DNA from: Chiloscyllium plagiosum
Taxonomy: Eukaryota
Assembly (NCBI RefSeq): GCF_004010195.1
Contig: NC_057718.1
Location: 72,345,018 to 72,409,017 of the forward strand
Length of the DNA stretch: 64,000 bases
Direction of reading: 5' to 3'
The position numbers and the translations under genes are program-made. The notes beneath the pieces were generated by a model. The model was given only the letters and a program-made list of their open reading frames with translations. It was not told the DNA's origin and did not search any database. This document shows, one piece after another, positions 13,379-57,601 of the stretch. Numbering within the stretch: the stretch's first letter is position 1; the number at the start of each line of letters is the position of its first letter.

Positions 13379-13849
13379 GCTTAGTACTTTTTATCTCGTG
13401 ATAATAACAATTCCAAGTTCCTCTCTTTCTATAATATCTGTACGGGATGGTAGTGTGAAAAGGAAAGCTAAATATTGACTTAGTTTACGTTCATCATACT
13501 TGCCTTAATAAAAGCAGTGCTATGTATGGACAAATTCATTTTATCGAAAAACAGCAGGGTCCTGTTTATGAATGTGTAGCTTTTAGCACATGAAAATGAA
13601 TCACACTGTCAGCCCAAATGATAATCTTGAATTAGTTTGAGACTCAATTTTGAGCACACTCAGGTTTATTCAGTAAATGTGGTCCAACAGTAGAATTGCA
13701 ACCAATGTCAGGCACGATATTCTGAGGTATGCAAGCACAGACTAGTTGAACAATTGTTAGCATGCTGCAGATAATCAAAGGAATATGTTGTTTGATACAA
13801 TCTGCCAATCATTGTAGAAACAAAAACAGAAGTTGAGGCAGGGTCACTG

Positions 13850-14715
13850 GACACACCCTCTCTCTTGCACACACATAAGCAACTTCTCTCTCGCACAGAT
13901 ACAAAACCCCTCTCTCTCGCTCTCTGTCTTGGAGATGCATATACCCTCTCATTCTTGGACAGATACAAAACACCCTCGCTCTCTCTCTCTCTTTCGCACG
14001 CAGAGACAAACACACTCTTCAGCTCTCTCTCTCACAGACACAAACACCCTTGCTCTCGCATAGAAGCACATTCTCTCTCTCTCTTGCACGGACACACGCT
14101 CTCTCTCTTGCACAGACACAAACACCCCCTCCCTCTCTCGCAGAGACGCAAACACACACAAACATCCCCTCTCTCTCTCTTGCACAGACACACTCTCTCA
14201 CTCATTTGCAGTCACAAACACCCTTCTCTCTCTCTCTCTCACTCGCACAGACACAAACACCCTCTCTCTCTCTTGCACAGACATAAACACCCTCTCACGT
14301 TCTCTCACTCGCACAAACACCCTCTCTCTCCCTCTTACATAGACGCAAACACAGTCTCTCTCTCTCTTGCACAGCCACAAACACCTCTCCCTCGCACAGA
14401 CGCAAAGACCCTCTCTCACGCAAACGAACATACTCCCTCTTTCTCACAGGCGCACACATCCTCACTCTCCCTCGCACAGAGATAAACACTCTCTCGCGCA
14501 CACAAGCACTCTTTCTCCTCACAGACGCACATACTCGCTCTCTCTCTTGCACAGACACAAACACCCTCTCATGGACGTTCTCACTCGCATAAACACAAAA
14601 ACACTCTCTCTCCTTCTCGCATAGACACAAACACATGCTTTCTCTTGCGGACTCAAAACACCCTCTCTCTCACACACATGCAAACAGCCTCTCTCTCGCA
14701 CACATGCAAACACAT
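13850..14715. repeat. CT/CA-rich degenerate tandem array (unit like cacagacacaaacaccctctctctctcttg)
   Basis: Visible low-complexity repeat. Confidence 0.9.
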
Positions 14716-15368: not shown

Positions 15369-16905
15369 GGGGATCCAAGGTGGCAGCGATCTAGGAAGAT
15401 CACGTTGCACTACACCACAAGCGGGACAAATTTTTAACCCGTCTTACCCAGATCACCATGATATCCTGGGACTCTGGAAAGGTTGTTGCATCCCAGGAAA
15501 CTTAAAAATCAATTTACTTTGGCTTTTGCTGTCCAGGGATGCCAAAGAAGGGTGAAAGAGCGTCCAAGGCTGGGCCTGTGGCCCAGCCTGCAGGATCCTC
15601 AGATTCTATTTCTTACCAGGCCCTGCTGAAGGAGCTCACGAAATCTCGGTGAGTTGTTGGATAAGCAGATAGAGGAGAAGCTGGCCCTGATCTCGGCCAT
15701 GCTGCAGAATCATGAACAGCAACTGGGAGTCCTGGAAAAAAGGATGGATGAGGTAGAACACAGAGTCGCAGTGGTGGAAGTTGATACTGGTTCCTCAAAG
15801 AATAGGATCCAAGCCCTGGAGACGCAGGTCTGTAATTTGCTTGACCAAGTTGATGACCTCGAGAAAAGGGGAAGGAGAAAAAAATATTCAGTTCATTGGT
15901 CTGCTGGACTGTAAGAAAGGTGTGTGGCCGGCGGAATTTATTGCGGACTGGTTGCCGAAGTTCCTTAACTTAGAGGCTGGAATGAGTGGCTTGAAGATCA
16001 AGAGGGCTCACCGGTTCACGGCGCAGAGGTTAGGTCTGGATCAACATCCTTGTCCTATCTTGGTCTGGTTTCATCATTATAGAGATAAGGAGAGAATCAT
16101 GGAAGTTTCCAGAATCCGGGGCAAGGATCCGAAAGCCCTAGTTTACGAGAGTTCTAAGATCATGTTCTTCCAGGACCTCTCTGCAGCAATGATCCAGGAA
16201 AGAAAATCCTATGAGGCGTCATGAGATGACTGAAGGAGCTTGGGTTCCAGCATGCTCTGAAGTATCTGGCAGTGTTTCGGATCACGTTAGATGGATCTGT
16301 ACATCTCTTTGACATGTCAGAGAAGGCAAGAGACTTTGTGGACAAATTAACTTAATCTGAACAACTTAGTATGTACAAATAGTAGTGTTTTTGGGTATAT
16401 CTTTGCTTTTCCCTTTAAAAAAACAGGGAAGTCCGTTCGGAGCTTTCTCCTCCTATCTTTTTATTGGTAAAAATCTGGTCTAAACTATGTTTGACGGCAG
16501 TTGAGATGTGCACTTTCAATTTCTGAGTTAAGTTATACCAAAGGATGGATGGGGTACTTACCTTTTTGTTCAAAATGTCTTTATTCACTAGAAATTACAG
16601 CATGGAATAGCATTCTTTTCTGCTTGTGTTTGTGGTACAGCTCTAGCTAGGAGGAGGGAAATGGCTAGATGCCTACTTATGGGCAGTTTATGCCCGGTTC
16701 AGGTATTTAAATACCCGGACTGCAGTACTGGCAGCGGGATGGCAAGTTGGGTTTTGGGATGTGTAGTTTCCCCCTTTGAGCAGGGGTGTTAATTCCCCTA
16801 TTCAGCACCATTGGCGCTTTATATGTTGGCCTGTTTTTTGGTTTTTGTTGTATATAATCTTTGATAGTTTTGTAGATTTGATAATTGTAGTGGTTTTAAT
16901 TTATG

Positions 16906-17117
16906 AGGAGAAAGTGAGGACTGCAGATGCTGGAGATCAGAGCTGAAAATGTGTTGCTGGAAAAGCGCAGCAGGTCAGGCAGCATCCAAGGAACAGGAGA
17001 ATCGACGTTTCGGGCATAAGCCCTCCTGAAGAAGGGCTTATGCCCGAAACGTCGATTCTCCTGTTCCTTGGATGCTGCCTGACCTGCTGTGCTTTTCCAG
17101 CAACACATTTTCAGCTC
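16906..17117. mobile_element. Fold-back Penelope-derived element, family A, young
   Basis: Near-perfect inverted arms; 15-bp TSD tggttttaatttatg at 16891-16905 and 17118-17132. Confidence 0.85.
17026..17053 (+). ncRNA. Minimal hammerhead ribozyme core, family A
   Basis: CTGAAGA-A-GGGC ttat GCCC-GAAAC-GTC: core boxes, helix II, palindromic AC/GT helix III and GUC cleavage triplet; helix I is weak in this copy. Confidence 0.65.
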
Positions 17118-18920
17118 TGGTTTTAATTTATGTAGTTTTTATGTTTGATGGATCTTGCCACACTAAGGCTCGGCGATTTGTGATTTGAATTCCTCCTCTC
17201 TGGAATCTAAATGTTACTGCAGAACGTTATGGCTAATGACTTAATTAAATGGTGAACCTGGAACATCAACGGGAGTCACTCACCTTTTAAGAGGAAGAAG
17301 ATACCTTCAAGTCTTAGAAAGGAGAAGGTAGATATTGCTTTGTTACAGGAGACACACTGGGATGATAGGGAGCATTTGAAACTACAGCAGAATGGCTTTG
17401 AATGGGTTTATTTTTCATCTTTTAATACCAGAAGCAGGGGAGTGGCTATATTGATTAGGAGGAATCTCCCATTTAAGTTAGTAAGTTAAAGACACCCACG
17501 GGAGGTTTGTAATTCTCAAAGCCCTGATAAATGAGGAAGAATATGGTGTTTTAAACGTTTATTGCCCTCTGGCTCATCATCTCAAATTTCTGGTAGATGC
17601 ATTCTCTAAATTGATCAGTCTCAAGTCCCGGCATGTCATTATAGGGGGAGATTTTGACTGTCTCATGGATCCCACAGTAGACAGGTTGCCCAAAGGCCCC
17701 CCGATACCCTCTGTACAAACTAAATAATTAGTGGATCCGTGTGTTGAGTTAGAGTTGATGGATGTCTGGAGGCGTCTCCACCCTACAGGCAGGGATTTCA
17801 CATTTTTTTCCAATCCACACAGATGTCACACCAGGATTGATTCTTTTCTGACCCTCGTGGCAACCCTGGACTTGATGGCATTTTGTACGATTGGTAATAT
17901 TATTATCCCTGATCATGCTCCAGTGTACCTGTTGGTTAAGATTAAGGACGTTACAGTGGGTTCAAGGCACTTACGAATGGATCCCTTTATCCGCAAGGAC
18001 AATAAGTTTGTGGAGTACCTCTCTAGGGAATTTCGGGCATTCCTAGGCATTAACTCAGGCTTGGTTTCCTTTGGGAAACTGACAAAGCCTATACCAGCGA
18101 CTTAGGTATTTCCTACTCTGTTAGTAGGAAGTAGTAGAAGGGTGAACAGCAAAGTCTCCTCGAAGCACAGTTGAAGGCAGTCGAGAAGGCTTACTTTGAC
18201 AGGTCCTCATTTTTCAAGCTACAGAGGATTACGACGCTGAGGTCTGCATTGAATTCCGTGCTCACACAGACAGCAAAGAAGGAGCTTACTTTCGCAAAGT
18301 AAAGGTTATAGGAGCGTGGTGACAAGCCAGGCAAGTCTCCCCAGGAAAAGGAGTGCCCCTCAAGCCATTACATTGATTAGGGAAGGGTCTGGGAACTTAA
18401 CATGCGATTCCAAAAAGATGAATGTGGCATTTCAGATATTTTACTCCAAGTTATACCAATCTGAGGGTTGTGAGGATGGGTATGTCAAGATGGAGTCCTT
18501 CTTCAAGGATCTGGAGCGACACCCGAACAAGAGTCTTTTCTCAAAGCCCCCTTATCAGAGCAAGAGGTGCAGGAGGCTGCGAAGCAGCTTCAGGATGGAA
18601 AGGCGCCCGGTCATGATGGACTTCCCAGCGAATTCTATAAGGAATTTATAAACATTGTCAGGCCGGATGCTCAACATGTTCAATGACTCATACAGTTATG
18701 ATCGTCTCTTGCCATGTCTGAGAAGGGCCAATATTTTGCTTATTCTTAAAAAAGGGAAGGTCCTGGACCTTAGTAGAAGCCCATTTCAGTCTTAAATGTA
18801 GACTTCAAAATCCTCTCTAAGACCATTGCGTTAAGGCTGGAGAGTGTTACCTTCTATTGTTAAAGAGGACCAGATGGGCTTCATAAAGGGCCATAGATTT
18901 TCCAATAGTGTTAGGAGGCT

Positions 18921-19262
18921 GCATAATATAATTCAAGCATGTCAACAACAGTCAATACAGGGATTGGGGATTTCTCTAGATGCAGAGAAGGCATTTGACC
19001 AAGTTGAGTGGCTGTACCTTTTTTATATTCTGGAGCTATTTGGTTTGGGCGAAGCCTTTATAAGATGGGTGAAGGTTCTCTATAGTGACCCGCATAATAT
19101 AATTCAAGCATGTCAACAACAGTCAATACAGGGATTGGGGATTTCTCTAGATGCAGAGAAGGCATTTGACCAAGTTGAGTGGCTGTACCTTTTTTATATT
19201 CTGGAGCTATTTGGTTTGGGCGAAGCCTTTATAAGATGGGTGAAGGTTCTCTATAGTGACCC
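18921..19262 (+). repeat. 171-bp in-frame tandem duplication in L1 RT
   Basis: Identical units at 18921-19091 and 19092-19262. Confidence 0.9.
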
Positions 19263-22350: not shown

Positions 22351-23034
22351 CTAAAGTAGGCAAGCGAAAAGGTTAATTCACTTCAACAAATTGCAAAACA
22401 ATGTTATTCTTTTCAAGGGTTACTTTAATCATTCAATTTCTTCATAAAACCTTTCCATACCTAGATGCTAAATGAGCCAACAGAAAGTTCTTGAAAATAC
22501 AACAAACTAAAATGGTCTTTCAATACCCGAATAGTCAGGCCCAACTAAAACCTTGCAAGTGCAAGTTTTATAAACTTCAGTATCAACCCAATATGTAGAA
22601 AAAAATAGCTGAATCTTGTGAACATGTGGATATACAATTGGTGAAGGACTTCAGCGTCCATCATGATGATTTGCTTGGTAGCAGTTCGGAATTAAGATAG
22701 CTCAGTTCTGAGGAGCATATTTGACAGACTGGGCCTGCAGGAGATAGTAAGAGAACAAATAAAGGGGAAAACTTACTTGACCTCGTCACCACCCATCTAC
22801 TTATTATATCATGGCAAGCTCGCAGCAGAATTGCATATATCTCAATATGTACTGTCAAGATCCAGTATGTCCTTCACTCTATAAGTACCATCAAGATAGA
22901 AGACAGCAAAAACAAAGTGCTGGAGAAAATCAGAGGATCTAGCAGCAATCAGATGTTAATGTATTTGGAATTGAAGGAGGCAGGGAAATTATTTATGCTG
23001 TGGTCAAATAGGTTGGAAGAGCATCAGGAGATTA

Positions 23035-24420
23035 CATAGAACAGTACAGCACAGCACAGGCCCTTCGGCCCTCGATGTTGTGTTGGCCTTTTATCCTACT
23101 CAAAAATCAGACTAACCTACACACCCCTCAATTTATTGCCATCCATGTGCTTGTCCAGCAGTCGCTTAAATGTTCCAAATGTATCTGACTCTACTAGAAC
23201 CGCTGGCAGTGCATTCCACACTATATAAGTAAAGAACCTACCTCTGACATCTCTCCTAAACCTTCCTCTGATTACCCTAAATTTATGTCCCCTTGTGATA
23301 GCCATTTCTGTCCTGGGAAAAAGTTTCTGGCTATCCACTCTATCTATGCCTTTCAACATCTTGTACACCTCTATTAAGTCACCGTTCATCCTTCATCCCT
23401 CCAATGAGAAAAGTCATAGCTCTCTCAGCCTTTCTTCATAAGACATGCCCTCCAGTCCAGGCAGCAGCCTGGTAACTCTACAGACCTGCAGACTAACCTC
23501 GCAGCTCTTAAACTCAATCCCCCTGCTAATGAAAGCAAACACATCATATGCCTTCTTAACAATCCTATCAACCTGGGTGGCAGCTTTGAAGGATCTATGG
23601 ACATGGACTCCATGGATCTCTAATTATAAAAGGTTATGCCTCAGTTACAGAGTGCTAGTGAGACTACATCTTGAATACTGCGCTCAGTTTTGACATCCTC
23701 ACCTAAAGAAGAATGAAAATGCATTAAAGGCAATTCACAGAAGGTTAACTAGATTGACACCCAGAATGACAGGCAGAGGTGGGTACTGCAGATGCTGGAG
23801 ATTAGAATCAAATTTAGAGTGATGCTGTAAACGCACAGCAGGTCAAGCAGCATCCGAGGAGCAGGAAAACCGATGTTTCAGGCAAAAATGACATTCCCGA
23901 TGAAGGGCTTTTCCCCGAAACATCGATTTTCCTGCTCCTTGATGGTGCCTTACCTGCTGTGCATTTCCAGCATCACTTTAATCTTGACACCCAGAATGAG
24001 CAGACTGTCTAATGGGGAATCATTAGACAGGCAGATCTTATTTTCACCAGAGTTTAGAATAGCAAAGGGTGAATTGATTGAAGTTTCTATTAATCTGAAT
24101 GGTCTGGACAAGATGGATGTAGAAAGATGTTTATTTACTTCTGTGAATGAACAATGAGATTACCCTTTTATGATAAAAATGGAGAGAGTTTTGTTTGGAA
24201 GATTGTGCAGCTTTGGAAAGCTTTGCCTCAGAAGATAGTGGAGGCAGGACCATTGAATATCTTTAAGGCAGAAGTAGATTGATTCCTTTGCCTAACAAGA
24301 ATCTAAGGTTATGGGGATGCATGTGAAGGTGCAATGTATAACACAAACTAATCAGCCATTATCCTCTAGGGGTGGAGCAGGCTTGAAGAGCTGAATGGTC
24401 TACTGCAGCTCGTAATTCGC
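23035..24420. mobile_element. Two CR1 3' fragments (minus 23035-23612, plus 23620-24420)
   Basis: GDLIEVYKML and LVRLHLEYCAQF motifs with CR1 tails. Confidence 0.8.
23770..23983. mobile_element. Fold-back family-A element
   Basis: 16-bp TSD ttgacacccagaatga at 23754-23769 and 23984-23999. Confidence 0.8.
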
Positions 24421-29659: not shown

Positions 29660-30946
29660 ATCCACATAGCATCCACAATGGCAGACCTCAGGACGTGTAC
29701 TCGCAATTGATGATGTCACTTTAGAGAAAGAAAACACACATGCTGGTAACAAGTAAGTTCCTTCAAAAAATCTGCAAACGCCTATGGGCACAATATGCTC
29801 AAACTAGTTTGAAGATGGGAAACCAATGCCATCCGCGAACAAGTGTATTTCCGACATGAATGCCTCTGGAAACAGGTATTACCATGATGTGTCAAATGCA
29901 AACCACCTCTCAGCACCCAACAAGTCAGAAGAACAGTAGAACAAAATGCCGCAGAATGTTACAAGAAATGATACCCACAACCGACTCCACAAATACGAAT
30001 GGGAAGCTTTGCGCCAAAAAGCTCTGTATACCAACATAACTGACCATGAGTTGACAAGTACATTAGACCGAGTCATCAACACTAAACAACAGTGGACCAA
30101 GACAAAGAAAAGACTAGCCCTTCAAGAAAAACCTGGACAAATTCACAAGCAACAGACAATTCAGAAGCTTGGATAAAAAAAAACCTGTGGGACCGACCAT
30201 TCACATACACAGAAAAAGCAGTCTTAGTACGAGGGATGAGCTACAACTACAGTCACGTGGACAAAATGGACTTTCTAGCAGCACTGGAATCAACCCTGAA
30301 AGACAATGGACTTAAGTAAGAAATCCAGCAGGCCATCAGACAGACTGTAGCACCAACACTAAGCAGGAAGAAAGAAAGGTACACTCTCAACACACTGGAA
30401 TGGAAAGCCCTGGAAGGACTCAGAAAAGACAGAAATGCTGTAATCATACCGGCAGACAGAGTGCATCACCGTCATCCTGAACAAAACATAGTACATTGAA
30501 AAAGCAAACACACTACTCGCAGATACCAACACCTACCAACAGGAGGCGATGGATCAGACTCCACAGCTAGAAAACCGAATGACAGCTGCACTGAAGAAAC
30601 CCCACAAGGCAGGTGAAATTAACAAAGAATGAAACCTGGTAGATCCAACACACTCCATTTCTACAGGTTACCAAAGGTACACAAACCAGGGACCCCCAAT
30701 CAGATCCGTAGTCTCATTTCCCAGCATTTCAACATCAACCGGAATACCTAATAGAAGACTCACGCCACTCCATCCACTCCACCCAGCAATTCCTGAACAT
30801 CAAAGACACCAAAGTGGGTGATGACGTGGTCATGATTTCTTCAACATGATGGCCCTATTCACATTAATAAACATCACCCTGGCCAAAGAAACACTGGCCT
30901 CACTAACACAAACACCAGACAGCACCAACTCAATCAGCAAGGACAG
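29660..30946 (+). mobile_element. Degenerate Penelope-like element (N-terminus and RT), truncated by a gap
   Basis: EKAVLVRG, VIIPAD, FYRLPKVHKPG and ALFTLINI motifs. Confidence 0.75.
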
Positions 30947-31446
30947 NNNNNNNNNNNNNNNNNNNNNNNNNNNNNNNNNNNNNNNNNNNNNNNNNNNNNN
31001 NNNNNNNNNNNNNNNNNNNNNNNNNNNNNNNNNNNNNNNNNNNNNNNNNNNNNNNNNNNNNNNNNNNNNNNNNNNNNNNNNNNNNNNNNNNNNNNNNNNN
31101 NNNNNNNNNNNNNNNNNNNNNNNNNNNNNNNNNNNNNNNNNNNNNNNNNNNNNNNNNNNNNNNNNNNNNNNNNNNNNNNNNNNNNNNNNNNNNNNNNNNN
31201 NNNNNNNNNNNNNNNNNNNNNNNNNNNNNNNNNNNNNNNNNNNNNNNNNNNNNNNNNNNNNNNNNNNNNNNNNNNNNNNNNNNNNNNNNNNNNNNNNNNN
31301 NNNNNNNNNNNNNNNNNNNNNNNNNNNNNNNNNNNNNNNNNNNNNNNNNNNNNNNNNNNNNNNNNNNNNNNNNNNNNNNNNNNNNNNNNNNNNNNNNNNN
31401 NNNNNNNNNNNNNNNNNNNNNNNNNNNNNNNNNNNNNNNNNNNNNN
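30947..31446. other. Assembly gap (500 N)
   Basis: N run. Confidence 1.
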
Positions 31447-31448
31447 AT

Positions 31449-31556
31449 TCATGCCGCCAGCACAAAAAACGAAAGGCCAGGAAGACCGTGCTCCACGCCA
31501 TCGACTCCTGGCGGGCGATCAGGTACCGTGAGCTCACAGGGCTCGAGTTAATGTGA
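31449..31556 (+). CDS. Probable C-terminal cytoplasmic tail of a retroviral Env; 5' part lies in the gap
   Basis: SCRQHKKRKARKTVLHAIDSWRAIRYRELTGLELM*: basic cluster plus YxxL, ending about 125 nt before the PPT. Confidence 0.4.
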   Translation, partial: SCRQHKKRKARKTVLHAIDSWRAIRYRELTGLELM

Positions 31557-31691
31557 CTTTCTCCCGGGACTATCCAAAGGCCCCATGACTGCAGCATGAC
31601 GGCCGACGGAATGTACCGGGCGAGGAGCCGACTTTTAAAATATCGGCATCGGGGGTGTGGACGTGTCCAACCCCTTGCCGAAAGGGGGGAC

Positions 31692-32419
31692 TGCAAGCGG
31701 GCATCAGAGCCGCCCTGCTTTTGCCACGGGACTGCCTACATCAGGAAACTATAGGAATTCATTTTGTGTTTTAAACAGCAGTCGCAGCTTTAAACCCACA
31801 GAACTCAGCAGCTGCCGGTCCGCCCACGTGACCGGGAGATAGGAGACAGAGGACAGATAAAATCCACACTATACCAACACTACCCATAACTCTTGGACCA
31901 AAACTCCGGAATTAATTAATATGGAAACCCATCTCCTAATCACATCAAGAGACTGACTGAAACACACCCATACCCATCGATACGGAGCCACCCTGACACA
32001 AAGGACAGGTATCCACCAGACAGGAACAGACAGACCAATACACACCAACACCCCAAGGGAACAAAGGGGGGTGCTAGCCCCTGCCCTCACAAAGAGAGAC
32101 AAGCAGATAATACCCGGACCCGTTTTACATAAACCAATTAGCACCCTAAAGTGCGTGCCCTGCAACTCTCCTGGGACGGCAGGAAACATTCTATTTACAC
32201 CTACTCCAGTGATGATGGGGAACTATCATCCCATTCATCCTCAAATTCCACACATCCTGACAACTAAAAGTATATAATATGTAGCAGCGCGCGGGAACAG
32301 GAGAGCAGCCGAGATTCAGACCTCGGTTGGTCTCCGCCGGCGTTACTGTAGCAATAAACGTTACCGATTGTTGAACCGCACTCTGGGCTCGGACTGATAT
32401 CATTTCATCCGCGCTAACA
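31692..32419 (+). mobile_element. 3' LTR (728 bp) of an endogenous retrovirus or LTR element
   Basis: PPT GAAAGGGGGG-AC at 31680-31691; termini TGCAAGCGGG...CCGCGCTAACA; TATATAA at 32271; AATAAA at 32353; abrupt junction into a CR1 at 32420. Confidence 0.75.
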
Positions 32420-34598
32420 AGGTATACAAGTTAATGAATGGAATAGATCGAGTCAATAGCCAGAGACTTTTCCCCAGGGCAGAATTGACTGGTAGAAGGA
32501 GTCATAGTTTTAAGATATTAGGAGAAAGGTATAGAGGAGATGTCAGAGGTATGTTCTTTATGCAGAGAGTGGAATGCGTAGCCAGCTGTGGTGGTCGAAG
32601 CAGAGACATTGGGGACATTTAAGCGACTGCTAGATAGGCACATGGAGACCAGTGAGTTGAGGGATGCGTAGATTAAGTAATTATATTTTATATTAGGATT
32701 AAACCTCGGCACAACATCGTGACCAAAGGGCCTGTTCTGTGCTGTACTTTTCTATGTTCTAGTCCACACTACAGAAGGAGGTGCTGTAAGTCTTAAAATG
32801 CATTAAGTTAAATAAAGATCTAATTCTAGGGACACTTATTTAAGGTGAGGGGGGGAAGTTCAAAGGAGATGCGAAGAGCAAATTTTTATATAGAGAGTGG
32901 TAGGAGTCTGGAACGTGCTGCCAGCACTGGTGGTTGTGGCAGAAGCGATAAGGGCATTTAAAGGACTTTTAAATAAGCGTATGAATATGCAAGGAATGGA
33001 GGGATATGGACTAAGGTCAGGCGGAAGGGATCAGTTTCATTAGCGTCATATTTGGTACAACATTGTGGGCCATAGGGCCCATTCCTGTGCTGTACTGTTT
33101 TATGTTCTAAATCCCCAGGAAATTTGGAAATGTATCCCAGGACTTTGTGGGGTCGAGAAAGGAAATTGCAGGGACTCCTAGTGGAGATATTTGTATCATC
33201 AACAGCCACGGGTGAAGTGTCTGAAGATTGGAAAAATGGTTAACATTGTGCCAATATTTAAGAAAAATTGCAGGGAATTGCCTGGAAACTATAGACCAGT
33301 GAGCCTAACTTCTGTGGTGCGTAAGTTGTGAGAGAGAATTCTGAAAGATAGGACCTACAGGCATTTGGAGAGGCAAGGACTCATTTGGGATAGTCAGGAT
33401 GGCTTTGTATTTGGAAATCGTGTCTCATGAATTTGATTGAGTTTTCTGAAGGGATTATCATGAAAGTAGATGAGGGTAGTGTGTTAGAAGTTGTCTAGAT
33501 GGACTTTAGCAAGATCTTTGACAAAGTACCGCATGGTAGATTGATGAGTAAGGTTAAATTTTGCAGGATCCCGAGAGAGTTGGCCAATTTGATACAAAAT
33601 TGGCTTAAAGGTAAAAGGCAGAGGTTAGTGGTACAGGCTTGTTTTTTTCGACTGGAGGTCTGTGACCAACAGTGTGCCACAGGAATCGGTGCTGGGTCCA
33701 CTGTTATTCATTATTTATATGAATGATTTAGATAAGAATTTAGGACGTATGTTTAGTACGTTTGTGGATAACACCAAGATTGATGGTGTAATGGACAATG
33801 ATGAAAGTTATGTGGGAATTTATCAAATGGACCAGTGGTCTGAGGAATGGCAGATCGAGTTTAATTTAGATAAATGTCAGGTGTTGAATTTTAGTTGGTC
33901 AAACCAAGGCAGGACCTACACAGGGCCCCAATGAGTGTTGTAGAACAAAGTGATCTCACAGTACAAGTTCATAGCTTTGAAAGTGAAGTGAAGAAGGCTT
34001 TCCCTGTGCTTGTTTTCATTGATCAGAGGATTGAGTATAGGAATTGGGACGTCTTGTTGCAGCTGTACAAGTTGTTATATCTGGAGTACTGCATGCAGTT
34101 TCTGATTGCCCTACTATAGAAAGAATATTATAAAACTAGAAAGATTGCAGAAAAGATTTATTAAGATACAATCTGTACTAGAAGATATAACTTATAAGGA
34201 GAGGTTAGATAGGCTGGGACCTTTTCCCTGCAGTATAAGTGGTGACCTTATAGAGGTATACAAAATGATGAGAGGCACAGATAAGATAGACATCTTTATC
34301 CCGTGGTGAGGGAGTCTAAAACTAGAGGGCATACGTTTCAGGGAGGGGGAGAGATGCTAAAGGGTCTGGAGAGGCAATTTTATCACACAGATGGTGGGTG
34401 TCTGGAATGGGCAGCCAGAAGTAGTGGTGGAAGCGAGCACAATTTCATAATTTAAGAAACATTTACACAGGTACACAGATGGGATTAGGTACACAGGGAT
34501 ATGGACCAAACATGGGCAACAGGGCTGGTTTAATTGTGAAAATTGGGTGGCTTGGTCAAGTTGGGCCTTTTTCCATGCTGTAGACCTTGTGACTCTAT
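32420..34598 (+). mobile_element. Three tandem CR1 fragments (32420-32760, 32830-33108, 33108-34598)
   Basis: VYKLMNGIDRV, PGNYRPVSLTS, DFSKIFDKVPH and VLGPLLFIIY motifs with CR1 tails. Confidence 0.85.
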
Positions 34599-55900: not shown

Positions 55901-56329
55901 GTACATTAAAGGGAAAGGCTTAGAGGGATATGAGCCAAATTCAGGCAAGTGGGACTTGTTCAGTTTAGGATACTTGGTTGGCATGGACATGTTGGACTGA
56001 CGGTCTGTTTTCTTTATGTACAACTATGACATTCTCCTGAATCGGTATTGCAACTCTCCTGTCCCTTTCTATCATGCCTGAAGCATCTAAACCTTGACAC
56101 TTTTAACTGAATCCTGCTTTTCACTCAGGAGAAAGTGAGGACTGCAGATACTGGAGATCAGAGTCAAGTGTGTGGTGCTGGAAATCCTGATGAGGGGTTA
56201 TGCCTGAAAAATCGATTCTCCTGCTCCTCAGATGTTGCCTGACCTGCTTTGCTTTGCCAGCACCACACTGCTCTTCTCTCAGCCAAGGTTTTGTAATGGC
56301 TATCACATTGTTGTCCCACGTACTAAGCT

Positions 56330-57420
56330 TATCTGGCAATTTTTGAGATGATTTGTAGTTCAGGTTGATGATAAGTATATAAGTTAGTTCGCTGAACTGA
56401 AAGGTAACATCATCAGTGAGAGTCTCCGGTGAAGCGCTGGTGGTATGTCCTGCCTCTCTATTTGTCAGTCTTGCTTTCTTAAGGTGGGTGATGTCATTTC
56501 CATTTTTTTTTCTCAAGGGAAGGTAGATAGGGTCTAAATTGATGTGTTTATTGATGTAGTTCTCATTAGAATGCTATGCCTCTAAGAATTCTCATGCGTG
56601 GATGTGTGGTATCCTTCTTTGTCTGTTACGTATGGAAGCTATTGATAGTGGATCGTGTCTTTTGGTGGCTAGTTGGTGTTCGTGTCTCCTGATGGCAAGT
56701 TTCCTGCTTGTTTGTCGGATGTAATTTTTTTAAATAGTTCTTGCATGGTATCTTGCAAATGGCGTTAGATTTGCTGATAGTATCTAATGGATCCTTTAGT
56801 TTCATTAGTCGCTGTCTAAATGTGTTGGTAGGTTTGTGGGTTGCCATAATGCCAAGGGGTCTGAGTAGTTTGGAAGTCATTTTTGATATGTCTTTGCTGT
56901 AAGGCAATGTGGCTTTAGTTTTTGGTTGCGTTGTGTCTGCTTGTTTGGGTTTGTGTCTGAGGAATTGACAGATTGTGTTTATTGGATATCTATTTTTCTT
57001 GAAAACGCTATAGTTATTTTTCGTAGTTTGTGGGTGCTGCAGTATGATGTAGCTCGTTGAAATAATGTCTTGATGCAGCTCCATTTGTGGGTGTTGGAAT
57101 GATTGCTTCTGAAGTTAAGGGTTTGGTCTGTTTTTGTTGTTTTTCTGTAGATGCTGGTTTGAAGCTCTCCATTAACTGTCCGTTCAACTGTCACATCTAG
57201 GAATGGGAGTCTGTTGTCGTTCTCCTCCTCTTTTGTGAATTTTATGCCTGTCAGGATATTAGTGTTGTACGTTTCCTCTAATTTGTTCTGTTTTGTGATG
57301 ACAAAGGTGTCATCCATGTAGCGGACCCAAAGTTTCAGTTGGATAGATGGGAAGGCAGCTTGTTCAAGTCTCTGCATTACTGCATCCGCTATGAGACCTG
57401 ATATTGATGATCCCATGGGT
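56330..57420 (-). mobile_element. Penelope-like element fragment (RT and GIY-YIG)
   Basis: MGSSISG, WVRYMDDTF, LPFLDV, IYRKTT and ICKIPC motifs. Confidence 0.9.
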
Positions 57421-57601
57421 GTTCTGCCTTATCTTTTATATTCCTTACTTCCAGCGTGGCACTAGCAAATCTCCCTGCAAGGATATTGGCGCACTTCCAG
57501 TTTTTGTGCAACCTGTCCTTGTACAGATCCCTCTTGCCCTGGAAGAGTTACCAACGATCCAGATATCCTCCATCAATTCATCAGCCATGCATTCAACTAT
57601 A

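Follow-up and report, generated by a model that had tools for sequence, protein, structure and literature searches.

The window, the whole stretch of 64,000 nt of the Chiloscyllium plagiosum contig NC_057718.1 that we analysed, holds between a gap of 500 N and the 3′ remainder of a CR1 LINE a segment of 973 nt (31447–32419) that is almost certainly the 3′ end of a provirus, whatever its lineage (Table 1). A plus-strand reading frame of 35 codons (31449–31553; SCRQHKKRKARK...YREL...ELM) runs to a stop codon at 31554–31556. Downstream, the purine tract GAAAGGGGGG (31680–31689) is followed by AC and, at 31692, by the TG that opens a unit of 728 bp (31692–32419). The unit closes with CA, and its termini pair as an inverted repeat at 9 of 13 positions. 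A polypurine tract (PPT) followed by a TG...CA LTR with a U3 promoter and a poly(A) signal, a hallmark of retroviruses, is thus present. The original prediction had described an ORF end with a basic cluster, the purine tract-AC-TG junction and the 728-bp unit with imperfect inverted termini, CCAAT, TATATAA and AATAAA, and we recovered all of these elements in place. The segment contains 49 CpG dinucleotides (observed/expected 0.76), compared with 12.2±5.4 and a maximum of 31 in 578 other segments of 973 nt, which bears out its description as a CpG-rich block.

Within the 64-kb window the 728-bp unit had no second copy. An Rfam search returned no matches at E≤1, and when 15 frames of the window were searched against Pfam, matches were obtained only for CR1 reverse transcriptase (RT) frames.

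Table 1. Features of the segment and its flanks (positions in the window)
Feature	Position	Strand	Basis or remark
Decayed retroelement RT fragments left of the gap, outside the provirus	30316–30946	+	Frames
500-N gap	30947–31446		Probably a placeholder
3′ end of env: basic cluster after the transmembrane helix, cytoplasmic tail and stop	31447–31556	+	71% identity to P0001
Spacer between env and PPT, 123 nt, CpG-rich, moderately structured as RNA	31557–31679	+	Length, predicted fold
PPT (10 nt) and 2-nt AC spacer	31680–31691	+	Sequence
3′ LTR, 728 bp, TG...CA	31692–32419	+	Termini 9/13 inverted; depth in 3/3 contig runs
Second PPT-like tract directly before TG, within U3	32055–32073	+	16/17 purines; 6/7 match to LTR end
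CCAAT	32134–32138; second at 32035	+	Motif only
TATA box, TATATAA	32271–32277	+	Sole TATA(A/T)A in the unit
Predicted stem-loop at the expected R start, 36 nt, 29 nt past the TATA box	32300–32335	+	Predicted fold
Polyadenylation signal AATAAA, within the second predicted stem	32353–32358	+	Motif, predicted fold; one in the unit
Target CR1 LINE, 3′ remainder, resuming at AGGT (E/VYK)	32420–32761	+	Alignment to 23034–23370

From the order of these signals, U3 would extend from about 31692 to 32299 and R would begin at about 32300, followed by a short U5. Established retrovirology, extended to this element, suggests how the segment arose. RNase H would leave the purine tract as the plus-strand primer, and integrase would remove two bases from the terminus, namely the AC that stands between PPT and TG, before joining the CA end to the CR1 target. 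The U3 signals (CCAAT, TATA) in the 5′ LTR would drive a transcript from near the equivalent of 32300, which the AATAAA in the 3′ LTR would end.

Two parts of the segment had stable predicted RNA folds. Region 32295–32419, which covers the best of the 18 windows folded, had a z-score of −3.28 (1 of 200 shuffled sequences was equally stable); here, a predicted stem-loop opens R and a second predicted stem encloses AATAAA (32300–32375), an arrangement resembling the TAR hairpin and the poly(A) hairpin of HIV-1. For 31557–31691 the z-score was −2.26 (3 of 200), and the predicted hairpin of the spacer pairs into the PPT. On these folding predictions, the CpG-rich spacer might serve in the export or packaging of the RNA.

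Copies of the element and the start of its LTR

The segment was contained in 20 of the 24 listed sequencing runs, which came from 9 studies under four organism labels; the best run held 0.51 of its words. Four of the 24 runs were aligned onto it, three contig runs (X1, X11 and X18) and one raw RNA run. All 30 bins were covered in each of the three contig runs. In X1 the depth ran into the thousands, and as many as 46 variant contigs were present at a single site, compared with depths of 7–32 for single listed contigs; such run depth gives no copy number and is interpretable only as multi-copy. The element is a dispersed multi-copy family. Instead of a single-copy unit without an env partner, as the original prediction had envisaged for the case that it was wrong, we found many copies and env relatives (see below). 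None of the listed runs that contained the segment was an RNA run. In the raw RNA run, of which about 2% was sampled, the LTR had a depth of at most 3 on both strands and env had zero, which is uninformative on expression.

Median depths over the env side, 31687–32086, 32087–32286 and R-U5 were 8.7k, 9.6k, 5.3k and 20.9k in X1, 13, 51, 37 and 54 in X11, and 72, 175, 107 and 223 in X18. The depth of 31687–32086 equalled or exceeded that of the env side in all three contig runs. The ratio of LTR to internal depth was approximately 1–4 and noisy; so low a ratio hints at many env-bearing copies.

The purine tract inside U3 (Table 1), which the original prediction does not mention, offers a second candidate for the start of the LTR. 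Two motifs of a purine tract followed by TG arose in 1 of 500 dinucleotide shuffles, and at least one such motif in 18 of 500. The second junction, at 32072, reads GGGTG, which is absent at 31692. No rise of depth at 32072 was found in X1, X11 or X18, where X1 was noisy and X11 had a step near 31770–31800. Because of this, and because the depth of 31687–32086 is LTR-like, we favour an LTR of 728 bp that starts at 31692. The second tract, which resembles the first junction and the LTR end, may be left over from an LTR that was older and shorter, or may have arisen by duplication of an end.

Two candidates from this region were discarded. A 52-codon ATG frame (31598–31754), which spans the PPT into U3, was rejected as an accessory gene because it had no Pfam match and because a 2-nt insertion at 31732 was present in about half of the X1 depth and in the X11 contig. 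A phage contig (L001, 4616–4637) shared 22 nt with the LTR end only and was dropped as a chance match.

Among the 33 variant places listed in the unit, at least 14 positions (at least 1.4%) differed in at least 95% of the X1 depth, a count to which differences between species or errors of the assembly may contribute. At an assumed shark substitution rate of 2.2×10−10 (PMC4422223), a distance of at least 1.4% could correspond to tens of millions of years. The proposed youth of the provirus holds only relative to the neighbouring repeats, as the copy is at least 1.4% away from nearly all aligned copies.

The CR1 target and the assembly gap

On the right-hand side, a CR1 copy of the window (23034–23370, minus strand) gave a 75% match that starts exactly at 32420, and this copy itself extends upstream through GDLIEVYK. 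The CR1 was therefore cut at the end of the 728-bp unit, and the cut at its EVYK codons agrees with what had been predicted. Ordinary CR1 reads departed from the segment just before 32420.

On the left-hand side, the segment borders on the gap; the other gaps in the window measure 196 and 660 N. The RT fragments beyond it (30316–30946) are presumably Penelope-like, judging by their motifs. Five pieces of this region had no Pfam match, and none matched the Env relatives or the CR1 copies of the window, so that the 5′ half of the target CR1 was not found there. In the relatives, the env gene takes up over 2 kb by itself. With neither env nor a CR1 5′ half left of the gap, either the 500 N are therefore a placeholder or the two sides were not joined in colinear order. 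That most of the provirus is hidden in the gap, as the original prediction had it, was an overstatement, given the length of env and the unrelated left flank.

A full-length provirus is probably present at this locus. There is an appreciable, though clearly smaller, chance that the family is real and the locus is a truncated 3′ fragment, or a contig joined to a non-adjacent neighbour, with any backbone. This would account for the sequence left of the gap, which is unrelated to env and CR1, and for the round number of 500 N; moreover, none of the contigs listed bridges the LTR–CR1 junction, so that the runs confirm the family rather than this exact locus. However, the contig ends inside a high-copy repeat, as is usual for short-read contigs, a related contig in X11 carries on for 118 nt further upstream than 31447, and the LTR–CR1 junction is precise to the base.

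The envelope tail, its shark relatives and the lineage of the element

A search with the 35-residue tail against 1.84 billion representatives (E≤0.001) yielded two matches. One was chiPu_0021390 of Chiloscyllium punctatum (P0001), with 71% identity over all 35 residues (E=3.4×10−7). The tail aligns to residues 167–201 of P0001, which are its C-terminus, and a transmembrane helix (147–165) lies directly before them. The second match, P0002, was a chance match to a repeat protein and was dropped. With P0001 as query, five longer proteins passed among 1240 candidates, and with the longest relative (P0003) eight passed among 6949. All named relatives come from sharks (Mustelus, Chiloscyllium, Pristiophorus and Heterodontus), and C. 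punctatum is among the hosts of the env family; XP_078074422.1, GCC19764.1 and GCC16524.1 are named natural Env proteins. Several shark 'uncharacterized proteins' (P0001, P0006, P0008 and P0009) are parts of env that carry internal deletions or foreign sequence at an end.

The relatives are approximately 700 aa long. P0003 has 714 residues, with RSKR at 249–252, a transmembrane helix at 660–678 and a basic cluster; its part behind the furin site comprises 462 aa, with an ectodomain of approximately 400 residues and nine cysteines. A furin site (RxKR/RxRR) occurred in all six relatives that cover it, as RSKR, RNKR or RIKR and, in one, RHRR. The CX6CC motif was found in none of the eight proteins examined, and Pfam and PDB searches did not recognise the family. 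A GP41 match in Pfam (E=0.041) appeared only for the internally deleted P0001 and for none of the full-length proteins. The ORF end is thus the cytoplasmic tail of an Env, and the family consists of furin-cleaved type I membrane proteins with a long, cysteine-rich fusion subunit. Since CX6CC was absent and the Pfam and PDB searches were blank, this Env is not gamma-type, which the original prediction had not noticed; its fusion subunit is presumably about twice as long as a gamma-type TM. The architecture of a retroviral env is thus found upstream of the PPT, with the tail in the window and the furin site and transmembrane helix in the relatives.

The YREL motif had also been put forward as support for an Env tail. 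It is no evidence, because the Tyr codon is peculiar to this copy: position 31524, where that codon starts, held another base in approximately 99% of the X1 depth and in all of the X11 and X18 depth. P0001 has His at this position. The tails of the Mustelus cluster contain a YSR(L/I) as well, but it is out of register with YREL.

In an ESM Atlas feature search, the best clusters were Baculo_F, Fusion_gly and Gypsy env (0.91–0.93), with a recognition value of 1608, which is below the gauge of 2300. The 10 best named Atlas matches all fell within one family or clan and were weak by the tool's own gauge; the 35-residue tail alone reached 0.89 at best and was uninformative. Pfam and PDB searches returned no match backing an F protein, and PF00523 had no row at E≤10 for six proteins. 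AlphaFold gave no confident model (P0003 with 11 alignment rows, pLDDT 29; P0018 alone, pLDDT 35). We infer that the fold is most likely F-type, like paramyxovirus and baculovirus F and the Env of lokiretroviruses and foamy viruses, and not gamma-type. Through furin cleavage and class I fusion, the Env would have enabled the ancestor to infect cells.

Taken together, an env tail, a PPT and a 3′ LTR, all belonging to a retrovirus-like element with many copies, uphold the prediction of an ERV 3′ end. We put the probability at roughly 0.55 that it belongs to an SnRV-like or epsilon-like multi-copy shark ERV with an F-type Env, the 3′ end of which is inserted in an older CR1. For the backbone taken by itself, the balance tips slightly towards an SnRV-like or epsilon-like retrovirus. 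Scans of the contig collection confirmed no pol linked to this env, and none of gag, PBS, 5′ LTR and target-site duplication was seen. P0009, a C. punctatum gene model that is possibly spliced, has a piece resembling an integrase (IN) C-terminus directly before env. The best match of this piece was the C-terminal domain of MLV IN (Pfam E=0.15, PDB E=0.094; non-significant and not independent), and a protein search with it returned only P0009. The relatives sit on contigs of approximately 9 kb.

The elephant shark carries SnRV-like (clade Huo) and epsilon-like ERVs, namely CmiERV lineages I–III (Han 2015, PMC4422223; Xu 2018, PMC6001957). They share a shark host with the element described here, form proviruses of approximately 9.5–10 kb with env, and epsilon Env likewise lacks the cysteine pair of gamma and beta Env (PMC3758190). 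These lineages were typed by Pol, and the available text of both CmiERV papers does not describe an F-like Env; our comparison is with the descriptions. Most shark RTs belong to clade III (PMC11089739). ERVs with gamma-type Env in anamniotes including Chiloscyllium (bioRxiv 10.1101/2021.11.23.469661) resemble the present family in host group, multiple copies and an env that is often kept. In contrast to them, the shark Env has no CX6CC and no GP41 or TLV-type match above noise.

Alternatively, the element could be a lokiretrovirus with the same anatomy, and cartilaginous fish would then join the hosts of that lineage; we regard this as unlikely. The Env of lokiretroviruses is F-related and has an RXKR site, a long subunit behind it, a signal peptide, a coiled coil and a transmembrane helix, as in the relatives, and their genomes end in a plain env-PPT-LTR layout (Wang and Han 2021, PMC7947760). 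The available text of that study does not report them in cartilaginous fish, although C. plagiosum, C. punctatum and the whale shark were among the genomes that it screened (the entry for Orectolobiformes is 3 / 0, which, going by the figure legend, we read as three genomes and no lokiretrovirus). The env family described here does occur in C. punctatum, one of those genomes. Loki-Str Env matches PF00523 (E=2.2×10−7), whereas no counterpart was found here at E≤10, and the IN-end piece is nearest to MLV, albeit weakly. We therefore favour an SnRV-like or epsilon-like backbone over a lokiretrovirus.

A foamy-like ERV, a relative of FLERVs and class III spumaretroviruses, would have its LTR start at 32072 and an accessory region at 31557–32071. 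That junction reads GGGTG, as does the border between PPT and LTR in foamy viruses and in the foamy-like ERVs of fish (PMC5210030), and its purine tract is the longer of the two; the Env of foamy viruses is related to F (PMC11468914), and FLERVs exist in sharks (PMC5512871). We consider this origin improbable: in all three contig runs the depth of 31687–32086 was at least that of 32087–32286 and exceeded that of the env side, without a jump at 32072, and the working junction is apparently PPT-AC-TG. No large ORF separates env from the LTR, as the 123 nt between the env stop and the PPT hold only short frames, and Pfam returned no match to a foamy Env family. In addition, fish foamy-like ERVs measure 12–17 kb and have accessory genes (PMC5210030), compared with the contigs of approximately 9 kb in the relatives. 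An env-bearing Ty3/gypsy retrotransposon of sharks, similar to the invertebrate errantiviruses, which are LTR elements with an F-type ENV cleaved by furin, would agree with the arthropod Baculo_F and Gypsy env clusters among the Atlas neighbours and with a PPT, LTR and GPY-like IN end, which are common to Metaviridae (PMC12440569), but is the least probable origin, as the best IN-end match was MLV and a survey, in its available part, lists no vertebrate homologues of the invertebrate errantiviruses (bioRxiv 10.1101/2023.10.26.564294).

Returning to the SnRV-like or epsilon-like reading, shark ERVs are already known, and so are F-related Env proteins in lokiretroviruses, foamy viruses and errantiviruses. 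Among the open-access papers that our searches returned, we found no description of a shark-wide Env family of this architecture. The family was overlooked by Pfam and PDB searches and would be skipped by surveys of fish for gamma and beta Env. With somewhat less than an even chance, it marks a shark-wide lineage (carpet, hound, bullhead and saw sharks) that has either an F-type Env on an SnRV-like or epsilon-like backbone or represents the first lokiretrovirus of cartilaginous fish. If true, either reading bears directly on the four scenarios for the origin of Env that were left open by PMC7947760. If an F-type Env sits on an orthoretroviral backbone, this type is not confined to lokiretroviruses and foamy viruses and may be ancestral or repeatedly swapped; a new branch would then enter the question of whether an F-like ancestral Env was later replaced. 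Taken alone, the locus is a common kind of proviral 3′ end next to a gap in the assembly, and its value is that of an entry to the Env family.

Other repeats were observed elsewhere in the window. A perfect tandem duplication of 171 bp (18921–19262) is possibly an assembly artefact, and a degenerate (CT)n/(CA)n minisatellite array with units of approximately 30 bp occupies 13846–14714. Two copies of a frequent repeat of approximately 128 bp, of which the window holds at least 10 related copies, stand head to head at 16891–17136, with arms (16938–17027 and 17030–17119) that are 98% complementary. We assume this pair to be a Penelope-type terminal repeat, and the fragments at 56121–57428 (minus strand), judging by their motifs, are presumably derived from a Penelope-like RT and endonuclease.
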